Positions 7,348-28,697 of a DNA stretch of 64,000 nt are shown in pieces (the first letter of the stretch is position 1; each line of letters begins with the position of its first letter). Source of the DNA: Vicinamibacterales bacterium (GTDB taxonomy: Bacteria; Acidobacteriota; Vicinamibacteria; Vicinamibacterales; JAMQPK01); contig CAVTVT010000003.1 in assembly GCA_963738315.1 (NCBI GenBank), forward strand, positions 1,466,595-1,530,594, given 5' to 3'. Made by a program: the position numbers and the translations under genes. Under the pieces are notes generated by a model. The model worked only from the letters and a program-made list of their open reading frames with translations, searched no databases and had not been told where the DNA came from.

Positions 7348-8168
7348 AGCCCGGCCCCATCCGCAGACGCTTCGGACAGCATTTCCTCGAACCTGCCTGG
7401 GCCGACAAGGTCGTGGCCGCGATGGCTCCCGGTCCCGGCGATTTCTTTCTCGAAATCGGGCCCGGCACCGGCGCGCTCACGCTGAGACTGGCGGCTCGAG
7501 TGGCTCGGGTGACGGCGGTCGAGATCGATCGCGACCTCGTCGCGGCGCTCACGGCGCGCGCCCCCGGGAATGTGACGGTCATTCCGGGCGACTTTCTGGA
7601 AATCGACGCCGCGCCGCTCCTCACCTTGCGCGTCGGTCCGGAGGCTGGGACGCGCCGGGTGAGAGTCGCCGGGAATCTTCCCTACAACGCCTCGTCACCC
7701 ATTCTGTTTCGGTTGCTGGATCTCGCACGGCACAATCCCATTGCCGACGCCACCCTGATGCTGCAGCGAGAGGTGGCCGATCGGCTCGCCGCGGCGCCGG
7801 GGACCTCGGACTACGGCGTGCTCAGCGTGCTCGTGCAATGGAGAACGGGCGTGGAACGGCTGCTGACGCTGCCGCCCGGAGCGTTTCGGCCGGCCCCCAA
7901 GGTCAGATCGGCCCTGGTCCGGCTCACCTTCCGCCCGCCTCCCCTCGCGGTCGCCGACGAAGCGCTGCTCGAGCGGCTCGTCCGCCGCATCTTCACCCAG
8001 CGGCGGAAGATGCTCGTCAATGCGCTGGGCCCGTTTGCCCGCGAGCGGTCGGTCTCCCCCGAGGGGGTGCTGGCGGATGCCGGCATCGACCCGCGACGAC
8101 GTCCGGAGACGCTGCAGCTCGTTGAAATCGCGAGACTTGCCGATGCCTTCAGCGCCTCGTCGGCGTGA
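7344..8168 (+). CDS. rsmA: 16S rRNA (adenine1518/1519-N6)-dimethyltransferase
   Basis: ORF 7344..8168(+) has GQHFL, FLEIGPGTGALT and NLPYN motifs. Its GTG start overlaps the nth stop. Confidence 0.9.
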   Translation: MKPGPIRRRFGQHFLEPAWADKVVAAMAPGPGDFFLEIGPGTGALTLRLAARVARVTAVEIDRDLVAALTARAPGNVTVIPGDFLEIDAAPLLTLRVGPEAGTRRVRVAGNLPYNASSPILFRLLDLARHNPIADATLMLQREVADRLAAAPGTSDYGVLSVLVQWRTGVERLLTLPPGAFRPAPKVRSALVRLTFRPPPLAVADEALLERLVRRIFTQRRKMLVNALGPFARERSVSPEGVLADAGIDPRRRPETLQLVEIARLADAFSASSA

Positions 8169-15349: not shown

Positions 15350-15393
15350 CGGGCGATTATATCGGCTTGCTCGCGTGTAACGCGGAGGTTACG

Positions 15394-15846
15394 ATGGCAG
15401 TGATGATCCCGAAACTCGTCGCCACGGCGCTCTCGAGCGCGGCGCTGATCGCCGCAGTTGCCGCCGCCCCGCGTGCGCAGACGGCCGATGCGAAGCCGAA
15501 GGCCGAACCGAAGCGTCCGCAGGTGACCCTCAAGGTCCAGCCGGCCTCCGGTATGGTGCCCGTGCGCATCTCGGGCGTGGCGGAGCTCCGCGGCGGCGCC
15601 GACGACTTCGAGGACTACTACTGCCCCACGATCGAATGGAGCTGGGGTGACGGCACCATCTCCGAGTCCTCGAACGACTGCGAGCCGTACGAAGCGGGCA
15701 AGAGCCAGATCAAGCGCCGCTATTCCATCACCCATCCGTACCGGGAGAGCGGCAGCTACCGAATCTCGTTCCGCATGAAGCAGAAAGACCGGGTCGTCGG
15801 CTCGGCCAATACGGTCGTTCAGCTCCTCGGTGGAGGACCGGACTAG
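15394..15846 (+). CDS. secreted hypothetical protein
   Basis: Within ORF 15298..15846(+). GGAGGT (15384-15389) precedes ATG at 15394, followed by the signal peptide MAVMIPKLVATALSSAALIAAVAAAP. The Cys-containing beta-rich body has no recognisable catalytic motif. Confidence 0.6.
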   Translation: MAVMIPKLVATALSSAALIAAVAAAPRAQTADAKPKAEPKRPQVTLKVQPASGMVPVRISGVAELRGGADDFEDYYCPTIEWSWGDGTISESSNDCEPYEAGKSQIKRRYSITHPYRESGSYRISFRMKQKDRVVGSANTVVQLLGGGPD

Positions 15847-16283
15847 TCGTTCTCCCGCACGCCCGGACCGGGCATCACCACGCACTCGGGAAACACGGCC
15901 GCTCCATGGCGGTCGAGGTGGAACGCTCGAATGGTGTCGTCGACCGGCGACACAATGACGTAAAGAAAATTCGCGCCTGCGGCTTCTTCCAGGTCCGATT
16001 GCGAGGGGACTGGCGCGCTCGCCGGGTGCGAATGGTACGCGCCAACTACCAGGAGCCCGTCGGCCCGCGCGGACCGGATCGCCGCGAAATGATCGGCCGG
16101 ATCGACACGGTAGCGGGTCGGCCCCTGTTCGACATTCCGCGCGCGTACCGCGCGCTCGATCGCCCGATCGCGCCCGAGCAGCAGCCCGCAGCACTCGTTC
16201 GGCGCCTCGTCGCGGGCGTGCGCCAGCATGGAGGCGACCGATGCGCCCGACAGGGTGATCGTGTTCTGCGGTTGGCCAGCCAC
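15843..16283 (-). CDS. MPN/JAMM-family metalloprotease-like protein
   Basis: ORF 15843..16283(-) has an upstream Glu (EAPNECCG) and the JAMM motif HSHPASAPVPSQSD. GGAGG lies 11 nt before the GTG start, and the gene begins 37 nt after the tyrA stop. Confidence 0.8.
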   Translation of the reverse strand: MAGQPQNTITLSGASVASMLAHARDEAPNECCGLLLGRDRAIERAVRARNVEQGPTRYRVDPADHFAAIRSARADGLLVVGAYHSHPASAPVPSQSDLEEAAGANFLYVIVSPVDDTIRAFHLDRHGAAVFPECVVMPGPGVREND

Positions 16284-16320
16284 GATGCTGTGCGCCTCCA
16301 GCCCGGCCGGCTGCGCGGCC

Positions 16321-17235
16321 CTATTTTCCGGCGAGCAGGGCCTCCCGCCATCGATGCGCGCCCTCGAAGACGCGCTCGATGGCGTCGCCCGACACGAGTC
16401 CGGTCCGCACTTCCTGGAGCAGCCGGATCAGCGCGTCGAGCGCGCCGCCGATCTCGTCGGGATTGGTCGCACAGACTTCCTTCCAGATGTCGGCAGGGCT
16501 CGAGGCGAGCCGCGTCGTATCCAGCAGACCGCGGCCCGTGAGCTCGAGCCCGTCACGTCCCGCGGCCTCGCCCACGACCTGCATCAGCGCGCTCGCCGTG
16601 AGCTGCGGGAGGTGGCTGATGAAGGCCAGCAGGTGGTCGTGCTCGGCAGGCGACAGAATTCTCGGGCGGGCGCCGAGCGCCGACGCAAATGCCTGCAGCT
16701 TCTCCAGCGCGGCACCGCCGGCAGCGCTCGCCGGCGTAAACAGCCACGGACGGCCCGCGAAGAGGTCCGCCCGGGCGAAGTCGATGCCGCCGCGCGCGCC
16801 GCCCCCGAGCGGATGGCCGCCGACGAAGGTGAACCGGCGCGGCAGGTCCGCCGCTGCCGCCGCGATGGCGCGCTTGGTGCTGCCGGTATCGGTGACCACC
16901 GCCGGTCCGGCGATGTTCCCGTCGAGGGCCGCGAGGAGCTCGAGATTCTGCTGAATGGGCGCGGCGAGAATGACCAGGTCCGCCTCGGCCAGGACGACCG
17001 GGTCGTCGGCCGCGACGTCTATCGCGTGGCGCACCATGGCCCGCTCGAGCACGTCCTTCCGATCGACGCCGATGACCAGCCCCGACGGCCAGGTCTCGCG
17101 GGCGGCGAGCGCGATCGAGCCGCCGATGAGTCCCAGGCCGATGATGCCGACCCGCTCGAAGATGGGCGGCTGGCCCGCAGGCCTCTCCGGCTGGATGACA
17201 CGGAGCGCCCGCCCGTCGAAGGGGCCGTCGGCCAC
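16321..17235 (-). CDS. tyrA: prephenate dehydrogenase
   Basis: Within ORF 16321..17637(-). It has the Rossmann motif VGIIGLGLIGGSIALA, the GGHPLGG motif and HLPQLTASAL. The in-frame GTG at 17235 overlaps the upstream stop; the longer Met-start extension would be antisense-overlapped with the DAHP synthase gene. Confidence 0.85.
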   Translation of the reverse strand: MADGPFDGRALRVIQPERPAGQPPIFERVGIIGLGLIGGSIALAARETWPSGLVIGVDRKDVLERAMVRHAIDVAADDPVVLAEADLVILAAPIQQNLELLAALDGNIAGPAVVTDTGSTKRAIAAAAADLPRRFTFVGGHPLGGGARGGIDFARADLFAGRPWLFTPASAAGGAALEKLQAFASALGARPRILSPAEHDHLLAFISHLPQLTASALMQVVGEAAGRDGLELTGRGLLDTTRLASSPADIWKEVCATNPDEIGGALDALIRLLQEVRTGLVSGDAIERVFEGAHRWREALLAGK

Positions 17236-18281
17236 TAGCGGCCCCAGCCGCGCTTGGCCACCGGTTCGACGCAGATGCTGCGCCCGATGGCGGGGGCGAT
17301 GATCCGGAGCTCCGCCATCACGCGGTCGAACTGCGCCGGGTACATCGACTGCGCTCCGTCGCTCAGCGCCTTGTCGGGATTGCAGTGCACTTCGACGATG
17401 ATCCCGTCCGCCCCTGCGGCCACCGACGCGCGGGCCATCGGCGCCACTTTGTTGCGCTTGCCCGTCGCGTGGCTCGGATCCGTGATGATCGGCAGATGGC
17501 TCAGCTTCTTGATCACCGGAATGGCCGAGATGTCGAGCGTATTCCGCGTGTAGCTCTCGAACGTCCGGATGCCGCGCTCGCACAGGATGACGTCGTTGTT
17601 GCCGCCGGCCAGGATGTACTCCGCCGAGAGCAGCCACTCCTCGATGGTCGCGGCAATGCCGCGCTTCAGCAGCACCGGCTTGCGCACCCGCCCGAGCTCG
17701 CGCAGCAGGGTGAAGTTCTGCATGTTCCGCGCGCCCACCTGGTAGATGTCCGCGTAGCGCCCGACCACGTCGATCTGGCTGACGTCCATGACCTCCGACA
17801 CGAGCTTCATCTGCTCGTGATCGGCCGCCTCGCGCAGCATGCGGAGCCCCTCCTCGCCGAGTCCCTGGAAGCTGTACGGCGAGCTGCGCGGCTTGAACGC
17901 GCCGCCGCGGAAGATCTTCGCGCCGGCCTTCTTCACGGCCGCGGCCGTCGTGAACACCTGCTCCTCGTTCTCCGCCGAACAGGGCCCCGCCATCACGATC
18001 ACCTCGTCCCCCCCGATGCGGACGTCGTCGATCGTGATCACGCTCCCTTCGGGCTTGAACGTCCGGCTCGCGAGCTTGTACGGCTCGGTGATGCGCAACA
18101 CTTCGTGCACTCCGTCCATCACCTCAATCAGGGCCGGGTCCACACGGTTCGCGCCGACCACGCCAAGTACGGTGCGATTCACGCCGGTCGATCGGTGCAC
18201 GTCCATGCCCTGCTCGACCAGGCTGGCGACCACCTTCTCGATCTGCGCCTCGGTCGCCCGTTCCTCCATTACGACCACCAT
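17235..18281 (-). CDS. aroF: 3-deoxy-7-phosphoheptulonate (DAHP) synthase, type I-beta with N-terminal regulatory domain
   Basis: Within ORF 17235..18317(-), starting at MVVVMEE. A ~70-aa ferredoxin-like N-domain is followed by the KDSA/DAHPS core GPCSAENEEQ..FRGGAFKPRSSPYSFQGLG..ITDPSH. Confidence 0.88.
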   Translation of the reverse strand: MVVVMEERATEAQIEKVVASLVEQGMDVHRSTGVNRTVLGVVGANRVDPALIEVMDGVHEVLRITEPYKLASRTFKPEGSVITIDDVRIGGDEVIVMAGPCSAENEEQVFTTAAAVKKAGAKIFRGGAFKPRSSPYSFQGLGEEGLRMLREAADHEQMKLVSEVMDVSQIDVVGRYADIYQVGARNMQNFTLLRELGRVRKPVLLKRGIAATIEEWLLSAEYILAGGNNDVILCERGIRTFESYTRNTLDISAIPVIKKLSHLPIITDPSHATGKRNKVAPMARASVAAGADGIIVEVHCNPDKALSDGAQSMYPAQFDRVMAELRIIAPAIGRSICVEPVAKRGWGR

Positions 18282-18282
18282 G

Positions 18283-18606
18283 CTAGCTATCCTCCCCGTT
18301 GCCGATGACACGCGCATCCACGATGCCGCTCGGGCGCGCCGACCCGCGTTCGATGCGTCGCGCCTCGTCGATAATCCGCTCGAACACTCTGACGATGGCC
18401 TCGCCGGCGAGCGGGCTGCCGGTGAGGCGCCCGTGCGATTGCACGTGCCGCAGCACCTCCGCTTCGCGATCGGGCTGGTACACGTCCAGGCCGAGATCGT
18501 GCTTCATCCGGCCGATCTCCAGCGCGCATCTCGCCCGCTCGGTGAGCAGCTCCACGAGCCGCTCGTCAAGCTGATCGATCCGATGTCTGAGCTCGTCGAT
18601 TGTCAT
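18283..18606 (-). CDS. chorismate mutase (AroQ class)
   Basis: ORF 18283..18627(-) reads [35 protein letters not shown], typical of a CM type 2 helix bundle. Its start lies within the trpA 3' end. Confidence 0.85.
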   Translation of the reverse strand: MTIDELRHRIDQLDERLVELLTERARCALEIGRMKHDLGLDVYQPDREAEVLRHVQSHGRLTGSPLAGEAIVRVFERIIDEARRIERGSARPSGIVDARVIGNGEDS

Positions 18607-19420
18607 GGGTGCCGTCGGCCGGCTCACCCTTGAGCCAGCGGACGTAAGATTCTACCCTTTCAACGAGATCCGGGCTGGCTCCAGCCTCGGCGATCACCCC
18701 CACCAGTCCGCTGCCGACCACCGCCGCATCGGCCCAGGCGCCGATTCGGCGCACGTGCTCCGGACGCGAGATGCCGAAGCCCAGGGCCAGCGGCAGCGTC
18801 GTCTCGGCCCGGATGCGCCGCGCCAGGCGCTCGGCGCCTTCAGCCACCTCGCTCCGCACGCCCGTCACACCGAGCCGCGAGATCCCGTACAAGAACCCGC
18901 TGGCGAGGCGAACCGCCTGGCGCAGCCGCGCGTCGGTGGTCGTCGGGCTCAGGAGGAAGATCATGTCCAGGCCGCGGGCCGCGAGCGCATCCCGGAAGCC
19001 GGATGCCTCCTCGACCGGCAGATCGAGCACGAGCACACCGTCCACGCCCGCCTCCGCGGCCCGGTCGGCGAAGCGCTCGAGCCCCATCCGCAGGATCGGA
19101 TTGACGTAGCTGAACAGCACGATCGGGGCGCGCACGCCGTCTCTCACCGCGGCCACGACGTCCAGCACACGCCTGGCCGTGGCGCCTCCAGCCAGCGCCC
19201 GTTCGGTGGCGCGCTGAATCACCGGACCGTCAGCCACCGGCTCCGAGAAGGGAATGCCGAGCTCGATCACGTCCGCTCCGGCCCGATCGAGCGCCTTCAC
19301 GATCGCTCCTGTCCGCTCGAGATCGGGATCGCCGCCGGTGACGTAGGTCACCAGGCCCGGAGCGTGCCGCGCGCGAATGAGCTCGAAGGCCGGCGCAATC
19401 CTAGACGCCACGCGGCACAT
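18566..19420 (-). CDS. trpA: tryptophan synthase alpha chain
   Basis: ORF 18566..19420(-) contains [17 protein letters not shown] and GFGIS motifs. Confidence 0.93.
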
Positions 19421-20636
19421 CCTCGATTATCGAGAGCCGGCGGGCGACGCTCTCGACGTCCTTGTCGCCCCGGCCGGACAGATTCACGAGCACTACGGCG
19501 GTTGGACCGAGCTCCGGGCCCAGCCGGCAGGCGTGCGCCACGGCATGGGCCGATTCCAGCGCGGGGATGATCCCCTCCAGGCGGGCGAGATCCCCGAACG
19601 CCTTCAACGCCGCATCGTCGTCGATCCAGGTGTACTCCGCGCGTCCGAGATCGCGCAGCCAGGCGTGCTCCGGGCCGACGCCGGCGTAATCGAGGCCCGC
19701 CGATATCGAATGCGTCAGCTCGATGTTGCCGTCGGCGTCCTGCAGGATGTAGGTGCGGGTGCCCTGCAGCACGCCCGCCACGCCCCCCGCGAATCGCGCC
19801 GCGTGGCGTCCCGGCGCCAGCGCTTCGCCTCCCGCTTCCACGCCAATCAGGCGCACGTCGGCGTCCGGGATGAAGGCGTCGAAGATGCCGAGGGCGTTGC
19901 TGCCGCCGCCGACGCAGGCGACGACGGCGTCGGGCAGGCGGCCTGCGGCCTCCAGTATCTGCGCGCGCGCCTCGCGGCCGATCACCGACTGGAATTCGCG
20001 CACCATGAGCGGATAGGGGTGAGGCCCCAGCACCGAACCGAGGAGGTAGTACGTGTCGGTGACGTTGGTCACCCAGTCGCGCATCGCCTCGTTTATCGCA
20101 TCCTTGAGGGTTCTGCTGCCCGCCTCCACCCGGCGCACGTTCGCCCCGAGCAGGCGCATGCGGACCACATTGAGCGCCTGCCGCTCCATGTCCTCGGCGC
20201 CCATGTACACGTCGCAGGCGAGTCCGAGCAGCGCGGCGGCCGTGGCGGTGGCCACGCCGTGCTGACCGGCGCCGGTCTCGGCGACGATGCGCCGCTTGCC
20301 CATGCGCCGGGCGAGCAGCGCCTGGCCGAGTGCGTTGTTGATCTTGTGAGCGCCTGTATGGGCCAGGTCCTCGCGCTTCAGGAAAATTCGCGCGGCGGGA
20401 CGCGCCAGCGCCGCCTGGAGACGCACGGCTTCGTACAGCGCCGTCGGGCGGCCGACGAAGTGCTTCAACAGGCGATCGAGCTCCGCCGTGAATGTGCCGT
20501 CGGCGCGGGCCTCGAGATAGGCGGCCTCGAGCTCGTCCACCGGCCCCACCAGCGTCTCCGGGACGAAGGCGCCGCCATATTCGCCGTAATACCCGCGAGC
20601 GCCCGGGTCGCGGCGGCCGAATCGCGCGTCAGCCAT
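19401..20636 (-). CDS. trpB: tryptophan synthase beta chain
   Basis: ORF 19401..20636(-) has the PLP lysine region [13 protein letters not shown] and GGGSNALG. Confidence 0.95.
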
Positions 20637-21221
20637 GCAATGCCTCGAAGAACGATCTCATCAGGCGCTCCTCCTTGATGCCGGGCGACGACTCGACACC
20701 CGACGAGACGTCGACGCCGTAGGGGCGCACCGTCTCCACCGCGCGCGCCACGTTGTCCGGACGAAGACCCCCGGAAAGGATGCTGCGCCGCCGTCCGGCG
20801 ATGGCACGGGCGAGCTCCCAGTCCACCACTCGCCCCGTCCCGCCGCGCCGTATCGGGTCGTGCGCGTCGAGAAGGATCGTCATGGCGGCGTCGTAGTCGT
20901 CGATCGCGGCCTCGTTGCCGCCGAGGCCGAACGCCTTGATGGCCGGTCGCGCCAGCGAGCGACAGTAGGCGGGCGACTCCGCGCCGTGCAGCTGCGCGGC
21001 GCTCAGGCCTGCGACGTCCATGGCCTGCCTCACGTCGCTCTCCGGCTGGTCGACGAACACGCCGATCCTGGTCAGGCCTTCCGGCATGCGGCTGACGATC
21101 GCCGCCGCCCGTTCCGGCGGGATGTACCTCGGGCTCCCCGGCCAGAAGATGAACCCGACCGCCGATGCGCCGAGCTCGGCCGCCAGTTCGGCGTCCCGGA
21201 GCCTCGTGATCCCGCAGACCT

Positions 21222-21243
<22 letters not shown>
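20629..21243 (-). CDS. trpF: phosphoribosylanthranilate isomerase
   Basis: ORF 20629..21243(-) contains [26 protein letters not shown]. Confidence 0.9.
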
Positions 21244-22039
<796 letters not shown>

Positions 22040-22043
<4 letters not shown>

Positions 22044-23071
22044 TCCACGGCTCCCCTGGAGGCGGCGATCATCCCATCGAGCAGGCGCAACGCCCTGCCG
22101 CTGTCGATCACGCCGGCGGCGGCTTCGATGCCCTCGAGCACCGATCCCGTGCTGCCCGCGATGAACAACGAGGCGCCGGCGTTCAACAGCACGACATCGC
22201 GCCTCGGGCCCCGCTCGCCGCCCAAGACGGACCGCACCATCGCCGCATTCTCGGCGGCGTCGCCGCCGCGCAGATCGGAGAGCCTGCTCTTCGGCATCCC
22301 GAATTCCGCGGGGTGCACGTAGAACGTGGAGATCGTGCCGTCGCGCAGCTCGGACACTTTCGTGTACCCGGTCGTCGATATCTCGTCGATGCCGTCAGCC
22401 CCGTGCACGACCCAGGCGCGATCGCTGCCGAGCAGCAGCAGGGCGCGCGCCACGAGATCGGTGAGCTCCGCGCGCGGCACACCGACGAGCTGCCGGCGCG
22501 CGCCCGCCGGATTCGTCATCGGCCCCAGCAGGTTGAAGGCCGTCGGGACACCCAGCTCGCGGCGAACGGGAAGCGCGTGCTTCATGGATGGGTGGAACGT
22601 GGGCGCGAAGAAGAATGCCATCCCCACACCCGCGAGCGACGCCTCCACCCGCGCCGGCGACGCGCCCACATCGACGCCCATCGCTTCGTACACGTCCGCG
22701 CTGCCACACCGGCTCGAGACCGACCGATTGCCGTGTTTCGCGACCCGCACGCCCGCCCCGGCCACGACGACGGCCGCCGCCGAGGAGATGTTGAACGTGT
22801 GGGATCGGTCGCCGCCGGTCCCGCAGGTGTCGAACACATCGTCGAACGTCCGCGTCAGACGCACGGCGTTGGCCCTCATCGTGCGGGCCAGTCCCGCGAG
22901 CTCGGCCGGCCGCTCGCCCTTCATGGTGAGGCCGACCAGGAGCGCCGAAATCTGAGCGGGCGTCGCCCCGCCGCTCATGATGGCCTCCATGGCGCACGCC
23001 GACTCCTCGAGCGTGAGGTTCTCCCGCCGCATCAGCTTCTCGAGCACGCGCGGGAGCGCAGGCGCACTCAC
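22040..23071 (-). CDS. trpD: anthranilate phosphoribosyltransferase
   Basis: ORF 22040..23071(-) contains DTCGTGGDRSHTFNISSAAA and KHGNRSVSS. Confidence 0.93.
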
Positions 23072-23646
23072 GATGGCGATCCCAGCGCGAGGAAGTTGCG
23101 CAGGAGGTGCATGCCCTCCCGGGTCATGATCGACTCGGGATGGAACTGCACGCCGTGAATCGGCAGCTCCCGATGGCGCAGCGCCATCACCGTCCTCTCC
23201 TCTTCGGTCTCGGCGGAAATCTCGAGCGCCGGCGGAAACTGCTGCGAATCGACGACGAGCGAGTGATAGCGGGCGACCGAGAACGGGCTGGCCAGACCGG
23301 CGAACACGCCGCGGCCGTCATGACGGATGCTGGACGTCTTGCCGTGCATCGGGACGCGGGCGCGGACGACGGCGCCGCCAAAGGCCATCCCGATGGCCTG
23401 GTGTCCCAGACAGACGCCCAAGAGCGGGATGCGAGGCCCGAACGTCTTGATCACGTCGAGTGTGATGCCGGCCTGCTCCGGACGCCCCGGTCCCGGCGAG
23501 ATCACGATCCGGGCGGGCGCGAGGCCGGCAATCTCGGCGAGCGTTATCTGGTCGTTCCGGCGCACCAGCGGCGCGGCGCCCAGCTCGCCCAGGTACTGGA
23601 CGAGGTTGTACGTGAACGAATCGTAATTGTCGATGACCAGCACCAT
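23068..23646 (-). CDS. trpG: anthranilate synthase component II (glutamine amidotransferase)
   Basis: ORF 23068..23646(-) reads MVLVIDNYDSFTYNLVQYL, with the catalytic Cys in GVCLGHQ and HGVQFHPES. Confidence 0.93.
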   Translation of the reverse strand: MVLVIDNYDSFTYNLVQYLGELGAAPLVRRNDQITLAEIAGLAPARIVISPGPGRPEQAGITLDVIKTFGPRIPLLGVCLGHQAIGMAFGGAVVRARVPMHGKTSSIRHDGRGVFAGLASPFSVARYHSLVVDSQQFPPALEISAETEEERTVMALRHRELPIHGVQFHPESIMTREGMHLLRNFLALGSPS

Positions 23647-25128
23647 CTAGAGCCCCTGCTCCGCCAGCTCGAGCGCGCGTACGAGCGCCCGCGCCTTGTC
23701 CCTCGTCTCCTGATACTCCGCCGACGGATTCGAATCCGCGACGATGCCCGCGCCCGCCTGGACCATCGCGCGGCGCCCGGCGATGACGACCGTGCGGATG
23801 GTGATGCAGAAATCGAGATTGCCGGCGAAGTCCAGATAGCCGACGGCGCCGGCATAGATGCCCCGCCGATCCGGCTCGAGCTCGGCGATGATCTCCATGG
23901 CGCGCACCTTCGGGGCGCCGGAGACGGTGCCGGCCGGAAAGCACGCCACGAGCGCGTCCAGGCGGTCCCGATCCTCGGCCAGCCGGCCCTCCACCACTGA
24001 TACCAGGTGCATGACATGGGAGTACCGCTCGAGCGCCATGAAGGTCGACACCCTCACGGTGCCGAACTGCGACACGCGCCCCAGATCGTTGCGGCCGAGA
24101 TCGACCAGCATCACGTGCTCCGAGCGCTCCTTCTCGTTCCGCTTCAGCTCCTCGCCGAGCCGCAGGTCCTCATCTTCCGTGCCGCCCCTCGGCCGCGTAC
24201 CGGCGATGGGGTGCGTCTGCGCCACGCCACCCTCGACGCGCACCAGCATCTCGGGCGAGGATCCCACGATCGCCAGGGGCCCCATGCGGAGGTAGTACAT
24301 GTACGGCGACGGATTGACGTGCCGCAGCGCCCGGTACACGGTGAACGAGTCGGCCGAGATCTCCGCCTCGAAGCGCTGCGAGAGCACCACCTGATAGATG
24401 TCGCCGGCGGCGATGTATTCCTTCGCGGTCCTGACCATCTCCTCGAAACGTTCTTTGCTCAGATTCGACCGCACGTCGACCGGCGGCCCCGGATCCGGCC
24501 GGGGGTGCGAGAAGTCGCGCCGAAGCTCGCGCTCCAGGAATTCGATCTTCGTGCACGCGAATCGGTACAGATCCTCGAGGTCGTCGTCCGGAGTGATGCG
24601 CGCGTTCGCGATGATGAGAATCCGGTGCTGCACGTGGTCGAAGGCCAGCACCGTGTCGAAGATCATGAACGCGGCGTCGTCCCGCAGGGCCGGATCGCGC
24701 GGCGCCGACTCGTCCTGCAGCGGCACCGGCTCGAACCATGCCGCGGTGTCGTAGCCGAGATAGCCGACGGCGCCTCCCGTGAACCGCGGCAGCTCCGCGA
24801 CGAACGGCGAGCGGAAGTCGGCCATCATCTTCCGCAGGACGCCGATGAAGGGTTCGCCGCTCTCGGCCACGATGCCCGTGCGCTCCACGATCGTCCTGCC
24901 GTCGCGCGACCGGAGGACCACGAAGGGGTCCTTGCCGAGGAAGGAATACCGTCCGACGTGTTCTCCGCCCTCGACGCTCTCCAGGAGAAACGCATAGTCG
25001 GAGTGCTCGGCGATCCGCAGGAACGCCGACACCGGCGTCAGCAGATCGGCGACCAGCTCCTTCACGACCGGCACGAACGTGCTGCGCCCGGCAAGCTCGC
25101 TGAACGTCTCGAACGACGTGAGTTTCAT
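23647..25128 (-). CDS. trpE: anthranilate synthase component I
   Basis: Within ORF 23647..25665(-), starting at MKLTSFETF (ATG 25128, an ATGA overlap with the aroD/E stop). Contains LSQRFE..GTVSGAPKVRAMEII..GAVGYLDFAGNLDFCITIRT. Confidence 0.93.
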   Translation of the reverse strand: MKLTSFETFSELAGRSTFVPVVKELVADLLTPVSAFLRIAEHSDYAFLLESVEGGEHVGRYSFLGKDPFVVLRSRDGRTIVERTGIVAESGEPFIGVLRKMMADFRSPFVAELPRFTGGAVGYLGYDTAAWFEPVPLQDESAPRDPALRDDAAFMIFDTVLAFDHVQHRILIIANARITPDDDLEDLYRFACTKIEFLERELRRDFSHPRPDPGPPVDVRSNLSKERFEEMVRTAKEYIAAGDIYQVVLSQRFEAEISADSFTVYRALRHVNPSPYMYYLRMGPLAIVGSSPEMLVRVEGGVAQTHPIAGTRPRGGTEDEDLRLGEELKRNEKERSEHVMLVDLGRNDLGRVSQFGTVRVSTFMALERYSHVMHLVSVVEGRLAEDRDRLDALVACFPAGTVSGAPKVRAMEIIAELEPDRRGIYAGAVGYLDFAGNLDFCITIRTVVIAGRRAMVQAGAGIVADSNPSAEYQETRDKARALVRALELAEQGL

Positions 25129-26582
25129 GACATGTGCCCCTCGTCCGACATCGCGCGCAGACGGGCGAGCGCCGCCTCGCGCATGACACCCTCGGGTGGA
25201 CGGCGGCCGATCCACCAGTCGGACTGCTCCTCGGCCTGCGCCACGAGCATGTCCAGGCCGCCGATCGTCTCGAGCCCGGCGGCCGCGGCCTCCCTGAGAA
25301 ACCGGGTGATCGGCGGGTTGTAGACCAGGTCGTACACGATGCGGCCGTCGAAGGCGCCCGCCCCGAAAGGCGTCTCGTCGCAGTCGGGATAGGTGCCCGC
25401 CGGGGTGGCATTCACGAGCAGGTCCCAGCTCTTGGCCGGGATCGGCAGGTGCGTCGGCTTTCGGCCGATCGACGCGGCCACGGCGGCCGCCTGCTCCGCC
25501 CGCCTCGAGTAGATGCTGACCTCCGCCCCGGCCGATGCCAGCGCGACGGCGACCGCCCGCCCGGCCCCTCCGGCGCCGAGCAGGGCGGCGCGCGCACCGC
25601 GCAGCTGGAGCCGATCGCGCAGCGGCGCCAGAAATCCGCTCACGTCGGTGTTGCGGCCCAGCCACTTCGTCTGGCGGCGCTTGAGCGTGTTGACCGCCCC
25701 GACCTTGGTGCTCGTCTCGTCGGCCGCGTCGACGCGCTGGAAGAGATCCACCTTGTACGGAATCGTGACGCTGGCTCCCCGCATGCGCAGCGCGTTCGCG
25801 AATTCCAGGAAGTCATCGGCGCTCGCCGCCGCCAGCGGCACGTACACGGCGTCCACCCCGGCCGCACGGAACGCGGCGTTGTGCATCGCCGGAGACACCG
25901 AGTGGCCGAGCGGCAGCCCGACGACGCCGTAGATGGCGGTGCGGTCGGTCACGTCGCGAAACCGGAACTCCTCGACCATCCGCGACGCCGGTATCTGTCC
26001 AGGCGCATGCCGGTCGCCCGCGTAGGACCACGCGGACCCGAAATGCGCTGCGAGGATCCGTGTGGGCAGCCCCGCCTCCCCCATTCCAACCAGCACCGTC
26101 CGGCACGCGTCGTCTCGCACGTCGAGCAGGCCCAGATTGTCCCAGAGGGTTCGGGCCATCACGGCCACCTTGACGACTTCCGCGCCGGACGCACGCATCG
26201 CCCGCACGCGCGCCGCGAGATCGCCGGGGACCCCGTCGAAATCGTGCATCGAGAGCACGATGCGCCGGCCGCCGGTCGTCTCCACGAGCGGGGCGAACGC
26301 GGCCTTGAACTCGATGTCGACGTACTCCGCACCCTGCTGAAGCGCCGACGACAGAATGGCCAGCCGTTCGGCTTCCGACCCCTCGAAACCTCCCCCTTCC
26401 CACTTGGGCCTGCACGTCACGATCACCGGGATCCGGCGCCCCTCGAGCGCCCCCGCCGGGTCGGGGTCACGCACCGAGTCGAGGCGGAGCTCCACCAGAT
26501 CGGCGCCCGTGACAGCGTCGCGGCGCTGCCTGAGCTCGGCCATGGTGGGTGCGGCGATCGTGACGCACAAGAGCGGCGGCAT
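25125..26582 (-). CDS. bifunctional 3-dehydroquinate dehydratase (type I) / shikimate 5-dehydrogenase
   Basis: ORF 25125..26582(-). The N-terminal half LCVTIAAPT..VELRLDS..VIVTCRP..VVKVAVMA is a type I DHQase. The C-terminal half GHSVSPAMHNAAF..NTDVSGF..LLGAGGAGRAVA is AroE. Confidence 0.9.
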   Translation of the reverse strand: MPPLLCVTIAAPTMAELRQRRDAVTGADLVELRLDSVRDPDPAGALEGRRIPVIVTCRPKWEGGGFEGSEAERLAILSSALQQGAEYVDIEFKAAFAPLVETTGGRRIVLSMHDFDGVPGDLAARVRAMRASGAEVVKVAVMARTLWDNLGLLDVRDDACRTVLVGMGEAGLPTRILAAHFGSAWSYAGDRHAPGQIPASRMVEEFRFRDVTDRTAIYGVVGLPLGHSVSPAMHNAAFRAAGVDAVYVPLAAASADDFLEFANALRMRGASVTIPYKVDLFQRVDAADETSTKVGAVNTLKRRQTKWLGRNTDVSGFLAPLRDRLQLRGARAALLGAGGAGRAVAVALASAGAEVSIYSRRAEQAAAVAASIGRKPTHLPIPAKSWDLLVNATPAGTYPDCDETPFGAGAFDGRIVYDLVYNPPITRFLREAAAAGLETIGGLDMLVAQAEEQSDWWIGRRPPEGVMREAALARLRAMSDEGHMS

Positions 26583-26617
26583 AAAAAAAGCCCCTTCAAC
26601 CGTCCGGCTGAAGAGGC
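26583..26617 (-). terminator. intrinsic terminator of the aromatic-operon leader
   Basis: On the minus strand, GCCUCUUCAGCC (26617-26606) pairs with GGUUGAAGGGGC (26601-26590) around a GGAC loop. This is followed by U7 (26589-26583), which runs into the aroD/E ATG. Confidence 0.8.
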
Positions 26618-26644
26618 TGTGTCTGGCTCCCGAATGTCGTCGGA

Positions 26645-26764
26645 TCAGGCCAAGGCAGACGCCCCTTCAGTCCGGGCGTAGTACCACCAGCCAAACGCGA
26701 ACGTACGCTCAGGGGCCGCTTGGGCGGTCGGGGCGATATCCGGCGTAATGGCGGCTGACGTCAT
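26645..26764 (-). CDS. aromatic-operon leader peptide (39 aa, not in ORF track)
   Basis: Runs from ATG 26764 to TGA 26647-26645 and encodes MTSAAITPDIAPTAQAAPERTFAFGWWYYARTEGASALA. Codons 22-29 are F-A-F-G-W-W-Y-Y. It sits between a promoter and a terminator/antiterminator pair directly upstream of the aro/trp/tyr operon. Confidence 0.7.
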   Translation of the reverse strand: MTSAAITPDIAPTAQAAPERTFAFGWWYYARTEGASALA

Positions 26765-26786
26765 GTCGTGGCGCAAAGAGACACGG

Positions 26787-26816
26787 ACGATAGCAGGAAC
26801 TCTTTGATTCTGTCAA
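26787..26816 (-). promoter_or_regulatory. promoter candidate of the aromatic supraoperon leader
   Basis: On the minus strand, TTGACA (26816-26811), an 18-nt spacer ending in TGc (extended -10), then TATCGT (26792-26787). It lies about 20 nt upstream of the leader ATG. Confidence 0.5.
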
Positions 26817-26861
26817 GGATTGTGCGACCATGGGAAGCGAGTATCCGTTAACTCCAAATCC

Positions 26862-28697
26862 ATGAAGAGACTGCTGTTCACGCTGGGAGCGAGCGTCGCC
26901 CTGCTGGTCGCGTCGCTGCCGGCGGCCGCTCCCTACTATCCGGTGGACGAGATCAAGCCGGGCACCGAAGCGACGGGCCTGACGGTCTGGCAGGGCGACA
27001 AGATCGAGGAGTTCAAGGTCCACATCATCGGGGTGCTGAGAAACGTGATCGGTCCCCGCCGCGATCTCATTCTGGCGAAGCTCGAAGGGGGGCCGCTCGC
27101 CGATACCGGGGTCATCGCGGGCATGAGCGGAAGCCCGGTCTACATCGATGGCCGCCTGGCCGGCGCGGTTTCGTACTCGCTGGGGGCGTTCTCGAAGGAA
27201 CCCCTGGCCGGCATCACGCCGATCGGCGAGATGATCGACGCGGCGAGGCTCGACTCGCCGCGGCCGCCGATGGGCGAGCGCGCCCGGCTCGAAGTGCCGG
27301 TCACCCGGGAGAGCACCAGCGCCGCGCTTCGCGCCGCGCTCTCCTGGATGCGGCCGTTCGCCGAGCGGCCGGGCGATGTCAGGCTCCTGAGCCCGATGAG
27401 CGGCGTCGATGGACAGGTCGCGACGCTGCTTCGGCCAATCTCGACGCCGCTGATGTTGGGCGGTTTCGCTGCGGACGTGACCGACCTGCTGAGCGGCGCG
27501 TTCCGCGACGCCGGCTTCACGCCGATGGCCGGTCCCGCCGGGGCGGCTGACACCCCCGCGGTGTCGTCTCCGCTGAAGCCGGGCGATGCTGTCGGGGTCA
27601 ACCTGCTGAGCGGCGATTTCCAGGTGGGCGCGACAGGCACCGTCACCGAGGTGGCCGGAAACCGTGTATACGCGTTCGGACATCCCTTCTTCAATCTCGG
27701 CCCTATTCAGTTTCCGATGACGCGCGCGTACGTGCACACGCTGCTGCCGAGCCTGACCGCGTCGATGAAGATCGCGACCACGGGGGAGCTGATTGGCACG
27801 GTGTCGCAGGACCGGGCCACGACAATCGCGGGGACGCTGGGCACCGGGCCGGCGATGATCCCGGTCCGGCTGTCGCTGCAGTCGGATCGCGGCTTCAAGA
27901 AGGAGTTCGAGTTCCAGGTCGTCAAGGATCAGACCCTGACGCCCCTCTTCACCTATGCCGCGGTGCTCAGCACGCTCGGCTCCTACGAACGTGAGACGGG
28001 GGCGGCCAGCTTCACCGTCCGCGGGAAGCTGCTCGTCAAGTCGCACAGCGACGTCCAGATCGAAGATCTGTTCACCGGCGATCGCGCAGCCCTCAGCGCC
28101 TCGGCCTCGGTGATGGCCCCGCTCAGTTTTCTCGTGGGCAACGACTTCGAGCCGATCGACATTCAGGGAGTGGAGCTCGCGATCGAGTCGACCGAGCAGC
28201 CGCGGACCGCCACCATCGAGCGTGTCTGGGTCGACGCGGTCCGCGCCAAGGCGGGCCAGACCGTCCCGCTGAAAGTGCTCATGCGCACGTACCGCGGAGA
28301 CGAGGTCGTCCGGACCGTTCCGATCGAGATACCCTCGAACGCGAGCGGCCCGCTCCAGGTGATGGTGTCGGACGGCGCCCGGCTCGCGCAGTGGGAGCGC
28401 CGGGAAGTGCGCCAGCCGTCCGAGCCGCGCAGCGTACCGCAGATCATCCGGGCCCTGAACACGGCCCGCAAGAACAACCGGCTCTACGTCCGGCTGCTGG
28501 CGCCCGACGCGGGCGCCGTCGTGAGCGGCGAGCCGCTGTCGGCCCTCCCGCCGTCCGTACTGGGCGTGCTCGAAGCCGACCGCACCACCGGAGACTTCGT
28601 GCCGCTGCGCAGCGCCACGCTGGGCGAGTGGGATCTGCCGAGCGAGTACGCCGTCGTCGGATCGCGCACGCTCACGCTGTCGCTGGAAGCCAACTAG
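26862..28697 (+). CDS. SpoIVB-like S55 serine peptidase family protein, secreted
   Basis: Within ORF 26820..28697(+), starting at MKRLLFTLGASVALLVASLPAAA (signal peptide). It has the S55-type active-site context GVIAGMSGSPVYIDGRLAGAVS and a large C-terminal extension. Confidence 0.75.
   Translation: MKRLLFTLGASVALLVASLPAAAPYYPVDEIKPGTEATGLTVWQGDKIEEFKVHIIGVLRNVIGPRRDLILAKLEGGPLADTGVIAGMSGSPVYIDGRLAGAVSYSLGAFSKEPLAGITPIGEMIDAARLDSPRPPMGERARLEVPVTRESTSAALRAALSWMRPFAERPGDVRLLSPMSGVDGQVATLLRPISTPLMLGGFAADVTDLLSGAFRDAGFTPMAGPAGAADTPAVSSPLKPGDAVGVNLLSGDFQVGATGTVTEVAGNRVYAFGHPFFNLGPIQFPMTRAYVHTLLPSLTASMKIATTGELIGTVSQDRATTIAGTLGTGPAMIPVRLSLQSDRGFKKEFEFQVVKDQTLTPLFTYAAVLSTLGSYERETGAASFTVRGKLLVKSHSDVQIEDLFTGDRAALSASASVMAPLSFLVGNDFEPIDIQGVELAIESTEQPRTATIERVWVDAVRAKAGQTVPLKVLMRTYRGDEVVRTVPIEIPSNASGPLQVMVSDGARLAQWERREVRQPSEPRSVPQIIRALNTARKNNRLYVRLLAPDAGAVVSGEPLSALPPSVLGVLEADRTTGDFVPLRSATLGEWDLPSEYAVVGSRTLTLSLEAN

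Follow-up and report, generated by a model that had tools for sequence, protein, structure and literature searches.

The logic of ribosome-mediated attenuation is established for the trp, phe, his and leu leader peptides and for the multivalent thr and ilv leaders; in Escherichia coli, thrL (Thr, Ile) and the ilvL leader of ilvGMEDA (Ile, Leu, Val) are experimentally characterised attenuators of the multivalent type. In Bacillus subtilis, the supraoperon aroFBH-trpEDCFBA-hisC-tyrA-aroE is controlled by the TRAP protein, which binds (G/U)AG repeats located before trpE, inside the supraoperon. Here a leader element is described on the minus strand of a 64,000-nt stretch of Vicinamibacterales (Acidobacteriota) DNA, the whole of which is referred to as the window; the element lies directly 5' of an aroDE-trpEGDCFBA-aroQ-aroF-tyrA operon. 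It is very probably a ribosome-mediated leader-peptide transcription attenuator, and the full statement that it serves this operon with Tyr and Phe inputs included is probable. An earlier reading of the same DNA (the original prediction) had proposed that the leader ribosome chooses between an antiterminator helix (segments 2 and 3, or 2:3) and a terminator helix (segments 3 and 4, or 3:4), and this is strongly supported: about 76 of 80 relatives keep the element, its codons stand at a fixed distance from the helices, the helices covary and the promoter is conserved. The parts of the element, by position in the window, are as follows.

26811..26816, minus strand: -35 hexamer TTGACA, identified in the sequence and invariant in the six closest relatives.
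26787..26795, minus strand: extended -10 element TGcTATCGT (TG at 26795-26794, TATCGT at 26792-26787), identified in the sequence and in relatives.
26645..26764, minus strand: leader open reading frame (ORF) of 39 codons plus TGA (ATG at 26764, TGA at 26647-26645), encoding MTSAAITPDIAPTAQAAPERTFAFGWWYYARTEGASALA.
26678..26701, minus strand: control codons 22-29, F-A-F-G-W-W-Y-Y (Phe at 26701-26699 and 26695-26693, two Trp at 26689-26684, two Tyr at 26683-26678).
26656..26670, minus strand: segment 2, the antiterminator 5' arm (conserved core CUGAAGGGGC at 26670-26661, window-specific extension GUCUG at 26660-26656).
26606..26625, minus strand: segment 3, the arm common to both helices (CAGAC at 26625-26621 and GCCUCUUCAG at 26617-26608 pair with segment 2; AGCCUCUUCAGCC at 26618-26606 pairs with segment 4).
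26589..26601, minus strand: segment 4, GGUUGAAGGGGCU, the terminator 3' arm, which includes the aroDE Shine-Dalgarno sequence GAAGGGG (26597-26591).
26583..26589, minus strand: U7 tract of the intrinsic terminator, adjoining the aroDE ATG (26582).

Like enterobacterial trpL (Rfam RF00513), the element has tandem Trp codons in a short ORF 5' of trp genes, mutually exclusive antiterminator and terminator helices which share one arm and between which the position of the ribosome would decide, and a stop codon near the antiterminator 5' arm. Unlike trpL, it has no match to the Rfam model, its three to four Trp codons are joined by one fixed Tyr codon and by additional Phe/Tyr codons, it would govern common-pathway and Tyr-branch genes besides trp, and it has no segment 1, an untranslated leader being predicted to read through rather than to super-attenuate. 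With thrL and ilvL it shares a single leader ORF whose codons represent several of the end products made by a branched pathway; those leaders, however, serve other pathways, have a four-segment architecture and are experimentally characterised. The closest organisational parallel is the B. subtilis supraoperon, in which trp genes are likewise nested among common-pathway and Tyr-branch genes and a leader terminator/antiterminator switch operates, but the sensor there is TRAP, while in the window it would be the translating ribosome at the head of the operon.

The closest precedent for the codon content, in the account summarised in PMC11802643, is aroR of Corynebacterium glutamicum (Neshat et al. 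2014), a Phe-Tyr-Phe leader which governs the aroF operon for 3-deoxy-D-arabino-heptulosonate 7-phosphate (DAHP) synthase by ribosome stalling and, like the window element, combines mixed aromatic control codons with a high-G+C lineage outside Proteobacteria. In that account C. glutamicum has separate leaders for aroF and trp, and aroR has no Trp codons, in contrast to the window, where W, Y and F codons share a single leader in front of a fused aro-trp-tyr operon; the phylum is also different and the sequences are unrelated. Actinobacterial and Sinorhizobium trpL leaders are ORFs with two or three Trp codons 5' of trpE and a terminator/antiterminator switch (PMC1262725; PMC6614838), but are Trp-only, unrelated in sequence and associated with a smaller gene set. 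Leader-peptide systems were, as then known, confined to Proteobacteria and Actinobacteria (PMC2965389). Full-text literature searches returned no trp, aromatic or mixed-codon attenuator described for Acidobacteria. Nor was any family found when positions 25500-28000 were searched on both strands with cmscan against Rfam 15 at E up to 10, including Trp_leader (RF00513), T-box and the Acido motifs, the sole match being ctRNA_p42d, a chance hit to the terminator hairpin whose 15.6 bits (E = 9.9) fall below the gathering score of 50. The original prediction knew of no described attenuator of such composition in this kind of lineage, and neither kind of search found one.

In the window, the 2:3 pairing joins 26670-26656 to 26625-26608 in two stretches of 10 and 5 bp, between which three nucleotides (ACA) bulge out. 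The 15-bp bulged helix which had been predicted is therefore present and its 10-bp core is conserved, but the 5-bp GUCUG/CAGAC extension is specific to the window. The predicted 12-bp 3:4 terminator with a GGAC loop and a U7 tract reaching the aroDE ATG was likewise found (26618-26589; 13 bp when the closing A-U pair is counted) and is conserved in the family. The antiterminator region folds at -28.3 kcal/mol, exceeding the stability of the terminator hairpin (-21.7 kcal/mol). Segment 3 is present as a single copy in the window.

Conservation was assessed in 80 aroDE loci, one genome per species, with 51-71% AroDE identity to the window; the closest AroDE homologues and the 80 fetched loci were from metagenome-assembled genomes (MAGs) of Vicinamibacterales/Vicinamibacteria (Acidobacteriota), with a G+C content of ~69%. 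In about 76 of the 80, a Trp-rich short ORF was found 60-190 nt 5' of aroDE, with runs such as AWWYW, WWWYW and SYWWWY, or GWWYY in the clade of the window (core W-W-(W)-Y-W/Y). A run of 5-9 T follows the first Trp codon at 88-135 nt in 76/77 loci, a distance of ~100 nt being nearly fixed, whereas aroDE starts anywhere from 0 to 65 nt past the T-run. An nhmmer profile built without the window matched 26699-26582 on the minus strand (E = 4.5e-24, 80 bits), and a profile built without the entire clade of the window still did so (E = 7.6e-22). No second copy of the element was found in the window or elsewhere in the loci, the additional nhmmer hits being the palindromic hairpin on the opposite strand. 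A weak match to the terminator half of the profile at 7990-8030 on the minus strand (E = 0.045) is probably an unrelated intrinsic terminator of similar stem. A natural deletion variant was observed in one relative (L070:2700-3000), where segment 3 (AGCCTCTTCCGG) comes straight after the promoter (…CTATAGT) and is separated by a ~55-nt loop from segment 4 (CCGGTTGGAGGGGC and TTTCTTCG), and where there is neither a leader ORF nor segment 2.

Alignment of the upstream regions of relatives, a check that had been suggested for the prediction, showed that the ORF, the aromatic run and the helices are kept in about 76/80 and that the helices covary. In alignment A2 (75 sequences), three conserved blocks lie 3' of the aromatic codons, namely CUGAAGRGGC (segment 2), GCCUCUUCAGCC (segment 3) and GGUUGAAGRGGC with a stretch of Us after it (segment 4); segment 2 is nearly a copy of segment 4, and each is complementary to segment 3 (GCCUCUUCAG). 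For the 13-bp terminator 91.8% of cells were paired (35-56% when the partner arm was slid by 1-3 columns), and for the 10-bp 2:3 core 92.9% (40-55% register-shifted). The observed covariation score was matched by 0/500 shuffles for both helices, and a three-way compensatory change was seen in which column 139 (U>C, segment 3) varies with column 65 (A>G, segment 2) and column 162 (A>G, segment 4). In 70/77 loci the antiterminator region had the 2:3 helix in its minimum-energy fold, and family mean energies were -25.4 kcal/mol for the antiterminator and -19.5 kcal/mol for the terminator.

Segment 2 is invariant at codon wobble positions and is kept where the leader frame or stop differs, TGA falling inside segment 2 in five loci (L053, L055, L064, L075 and L079), which indicates that it is constrained as RNA and not as the peptide motif 'EGA/EEA'. 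RNAalifold recovered the terminator only; as it assigned the Trp/Tyr codons no pairing partner, these are conserved for what they encode. Two candidate structures were rejected: a local hairpin (ACGCCC/GGGGCGU) in the free-RNA fold of the window, which is missing from the consensus structure, and a helix between the Trp codons (UGGUGG) and a CCACC further downstream, a motif present in just 11/77 loci.

The spacing between codons and helices was also constrained. In 72 loci exactly 7 nt separate the end of the last aromatic codon from segment 2, and the run extends 5'-ward from this point, such that the first Trp codon lies 19, 22 or 25 nt from segment 2. The leader stop ranges from 9 nt inside to 16 nt past the end of segment 2 (most commonly 13 nt past). 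Folding with ribosome masks had been proposed as a further check, and nascent-transcript folds of the window RNA ending at the terminator loop, in which the ribosome was represented by masking -18..+12 nt relative to the A site, switched as predicted. With no ribosome, or with a ribosome at the first or second Phe codon, the first or second Trp codon or the first Tyr codon, the 2:3 helix formed at 10/10 bp; once the ribosome had reached the last Tyr codon it was lost, and at the stop it was halved (range 0-5/10 bp). The footprint of the ribosome is an assumption based on established knowledge.

A helix between GCCCCU and AGGGGC of segment 2 had been proposed as a 1:2 pairing, and this part of the prediction failed. 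GCCCCT is present at 26716-26711 on the minus strand, but the helix was used in no minimum-energy fold of the window, was not recovered by RNAalifold on the family alignment, and amounts to a chance match which is not conserved. The complementarity of the upstream 80 nt to segment 2 was at shuffle level (z = -0.32 for the window; mean z = -0.13 over 77 loci), and segment 1, or any other upstream partner of segment 2, was rejected. The architecture therefore has three segments rather than four. An untranslated leader is consequently predicted by this model to form the antiterminator by default and to read through, unlike E. coli trp, and termination is predicted to require a ribosome that follows the polymerase closely. 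In the absence of segment 1, segment 2 would stay free wherever upstream the ribosome stalled, and the scatter of Phe and Tyr codons fits this. The idea that a longer, extended antiterminator is under selection was also rejected, as the inter-segment sequence was barely better than shuffles (mean z = -0.27); the conserved part of the antiterminator is the 10-bp core only.

The ORF running from ATG 26764 to TGA 26647-26645 with F-A-F-G-W-W-Y-Y was confirmed at these coordinates, and homologous ORFs are those found in about 76/80 relatives. A TTG-extended version (26645..26776) is present in the list of ORFs, and the ATG is the inferred start codon of the leader. TGG makes up only 0.7% of the operon codons. 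The exact leader ORF of the window was absent from a collection of 5.8 billion proteins, in which a leader-peptide profile (first row 44 aa) identified 32 family members, all unnamed or annotated 'hypothetical protein'. One relative has a called homologue of the leader (L081, 9804-9938, 44 aa). A subclade which includes this homologue and proteins P0123-P0143 shares the N-terminal motif MASTKRxP(R/K)PIVIA ahead of SFGFGWWYYAQTEGATALA, which may reflect recent common ancestry or peptide constraint; the leader of the window does not have this motif.

Conservation of the control codons was counted backward from segment 2 in 72 loci, with the following results.

Leader position -5: W in 36/72.
Leader position -4: W in 56/72.
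Leader position -3: W in 51/72, R in 13/72.
Leader position -2: Y in 64/72.
Leader position -1: W in 39/72, R in 10/72, Y in 7/72.

Trp is the conserved core signal, and Trp sensing is well supported by inference. The Tyr codon at -2 was TAT in 50/64 (78%) compared to 24% of the Tyr codons of aroDE (Fisher p about 1e-17). In the 13 codons 5' of the core, Phe (10.0%) and Tyr (4.1%) were enriched over the other two frames of the same DNA (2.8% and 0.6%) and over AroDE proteins (2.9% and 1.7%), while Trp was not enriched in these upstream codons (2.2% vs 2.0%). Phe-rich leaders occur in several clades (SFGFGWWYY in that of the window, MPRFFSPFAFRYASYWWWY in another), which ruled out a confinement of Phe codons to the clade of the window. 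Of the proposed three-amino-acid attenuator, then, the universal Trp core, the near-invariant Tyr and the in-frame enrichment of Phe/Tyr stood, but three-way sensing is plausible only. As a separate observation, Arg codons (CGG/CGC), which are one mutation from TGG, often break or end the Trp run (WRYW, WRWYW, WWRYW, WWWYR; 8-13/72 loci at positions -1, -3 and -4), resembling the W-W-R of E. coli trpL.

The minus-strand promoter of the original prediction (TTGACA, 18-nt spacer ending in TGc, TATCGT) was present at the coordinates listed above and is conserved in relatives, with the window aligning base for base to the six closest. It is the sole sigma-70-like match within 25000-28500 (expected 0.2). 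TTGACA-18-TAnnGT, usually TG-extended, was found 42-134 nt 5' of the Trp run in 62/77 loci compared to 1/77 control windows inside aroDE. An interpretation of the conserved GTGGCACA…TTGAC box as sigma-54-dependent was rejected, given that the window has TCGCAC and the GG-N10-GC rule is unmet. Two further boxes are kept in the six closest relatives, GTSGCACA (26821-26828, minus strand) just 5' of the -35 hexamer and TCAAAG (26802-26807, minus strand) in the spacer; these could be a repressor operator or a piece of the promoter of the divergent peptidase gene. This plus-strand gene, which starts at 26862 and borders the intergenic region, encodes a signal peptide and a Peptidase_S55 domain.

From these features the following sequence of events may be proposed. 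When charged aromatic tRNAs are plentiful, the leader ribosome would reach the stop close behind RNA polymerase and cover segment 2, whereupon segments 3 and 4 would pair and transcription would end at the U-tract (26589-26583). A ribosome delayed at the Trp codons would leave segment 2 free, the stabler 2:3 hairpin would form first, and transcription would read through into aroDE; delay at the Tyr or Phe codons would probably have the same effect. A leader that is not translated would read through by default, and a stall anywhere 5' of segment 2 would count. In the window and in about half of the relatives, the terminator fold would additionally mask translation initiation of aroDE. The most far-reaching form of this proposal, a multivalent three-aromatic, three-segment, default-ON kinetic switch in which a stall at any Trp, Tyr or Phe codon de-attenuates the operon, and which would be the first such family for Acidobacteriota, is an evenly balanced call.

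The main alternative concerns what is sensed. The element may be a Trp-only attenuator analogous to trpL, with Tyr and Phe codons that are present by accident or retained for another reason such as nascent-peptide or codon-context effects; Trp codons are universal and the most numerous (positions -5, -4, -3 and -1), trp genes make up seven of the eleven in the operon, and segment 2 may already be masked once the ribosome reaches the last Tyr codon. The C. glutamicum F-Y-F leader is a caution in the same direction, as the summary in PMC11802643 states that Tyr availability was without effect and that only Phe limitation acted, and the presence of a codon does not therefore prove sensing. Against Trp-only control stand a Tyr codon at -2 which is kept in 64/72 loci, mostly as the rare TAT, and whose conservation is unexplained by any RNA pairing partner, and the in-frame enrichment of Phe/Tyr, and not Trp, 5' of the core in several clades; the operon, moreover, also has DAHP synthase, aroDE, chorismate mutase and tyrA. 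On this evidence a Trp-only element is considered unlikely, and a contribution of Tyr and Phe charging to control is slightly favoured.

Other rivals question the mechanism itself. The sole aroDE Shine-Dalgarno sequence of the window (GAAGGGG, 8 nt 5' of the ATG) lies inside segment 4 and the U-tract abuts the ATG, and in 38/76 relatives the T-run is <=12 nt from the start; this could suggest a mainly translational attenuator in which the 3:4 hairpin hides the Shine-Dalgarno sequence, leader translation opens it and termination is minor. In the other 38/76, however, aroDE starts 13-65 nt past the T-run, where segment 4 cannot be its Shine-Dalgarno sequence, and the hairpin with its run of 5-9 T is conserved regardless in genomes of ~69% G+C. 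The logic would also be reversed, as full translation of the leader favours the 3:4 hairpin. A mainly translational mechanism is hence very unlikely; the predicted occlusion of the aroDE Shine-Dalgarno sequence by the terminator applies to the window and to roughly half of the relatives, not to the whole family, and is an added layer in some lineages rather than the conserved mechanism. It is highly improbable that the switch is set by a factor acting in trans (a TRAP-like protein, a T-box-like tRNA contact or a small ligand) with the ORF playing no part as sensor. TRAP and T-box leaders do control trp/aro supraoperons in this way in B. subtilis, and the leader ATG of the window has no Shine-Dalgarno sequence, but no T-box or other Rfam match was found at E up to 10, there is no (G/U)AG repeat array in the leader alignment, no structure is conserved besides the two helices, and the upstream features which are conserved are in-frame codons at a fixed distance from segment 2 and a stop constrained at segment 2. 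Least probable of all is that the ORF is a small protein, or the terminated leader a small RNA, acting in trans with attenuation secondary, despite the precedent of peTrpL/rnTrpL in Sinorhizobium meliloti (PMC7298713, PMC6614838) and the N-terminal motif common to some subclades. The N-terminal half is variable in length and sequence (8-45 codons), the C-terminal 'EGA' is conserved as RNA and not as peptide, and a role in trans would not exclude attenuation.

Several points weigh against the ribosome-mediated reading of the element, or against its multivalent form. The missing Shine-Dalgarno sequence of the leader ATG is one, and the position of the start codon differs among relatives. There is no conserved pause or 1:2 hairpin which would synchronise ribosome and polymerase. 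If the footprint extends to +12 nt, segment 2 is already clipped by a ribosome stalled at the last Tyr codon, and this codon may be ineffective as a sensor, or the assumed footprint slightly too large. The equilibrium fold of the complete leader always gives the terminator, which formed in nearly every state with and without ribosome masks (overall z = -0.5); the choice must therefore be kinetic and be decided as segment 3 emerges. Finally, the whole case is in silico, nearly all relatives are MAGs, and the P values for codon enrichment ignore shared ancestry.

Next to nothing is known of gene regulation in Vicinamibacterales, which are abundant in soil and for the most part uncultured, and the element is an order-wide, alignable cis-regulatory family suited to a new Rfam family or annotation rule, which also explains a recurring small ORF that is either uncalled or annotated 'hypothetical protein'. 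If the multivalent reading is true, it would be the first leader-peptide attenuator family defined for Acidobacteriota, spanning Vicinamibacterales. The mechanism is textbook, and the finding extends rather than overturns existing knowledge and is not mechanistically surprising. The element does provide natural tests of whether one leader integrates three aminoacyl-tRNA pools for a fused aro-trp-tyr operon and of attenuation without a 1:2 hairpin.

The controlled operon comprises eleven genes, most of those downstream of aroDE overlapping by 4-22 nt, as listed here.

16321..26582, minus strand: operon aroDE-trpEGDCFBA-chorismate mutase-DAHP synthase-tyrA (aroQ-aroF-tyrA end).
26582-25125, minus strand: aroDE, fused type I dehydroquinase/shikimate dehydrogenase.
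25128-23647, minus strand: trpE, whose ATG overlaps the aroDE stop (ATGA, 25125-25128).
23646-23068, minus strand: trpG.
23071-22040, minus strand: trpD.
22043-21222, minus strand: trpC.
21243-20629, minus strand: trpF.
20636-19401, minus strand: trpB.
19420-18566, minus strand: trpA.
18627-18283, minus strand: type II chorismate mutase, 114 codons (Pfam CM_2, E = 1.3e-22), overlapping the trpA and DAHP synthase genes.
18317-17235, minus strand: DAHP synthase, B. subtilis-type.
About 17238-16321, minus strand: prephenate dehydrogenase (tyrA).

A 672-codon, GTG-started ORF (23647-25665) overestimates trpE, the profile match beginning near residue 181. The chorismate mutase ORF means that the operon also holds the first step of the Phe/Tyr branch; there is no pheA. 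Between the end of tyrA and a leucyl aminopeptidase gene, ~970 nt (15350-16320) hold no recognisable gene, and three ORFs in this interval had no significant Pfam or NCBIfam match. The same eleven-gene order, chorismate mutase included, and the same divergent peptidase gene were found on the 1.87-Mb contig of L081, and trpE follows aroDE in 80/80 loci. Eight of the MAG records (L006, L007, L024, L029, L031, L037, L052 and L079) are titled Bifidobacterium breve, Bifidobacteriaceae, Betaproteobacteria or Acidimicrobiia, yet have a Vicinamibacterales-type aroDE locus with the leader and an AroDE identity of 57-60%; their taxonomic labels are probably wrong.

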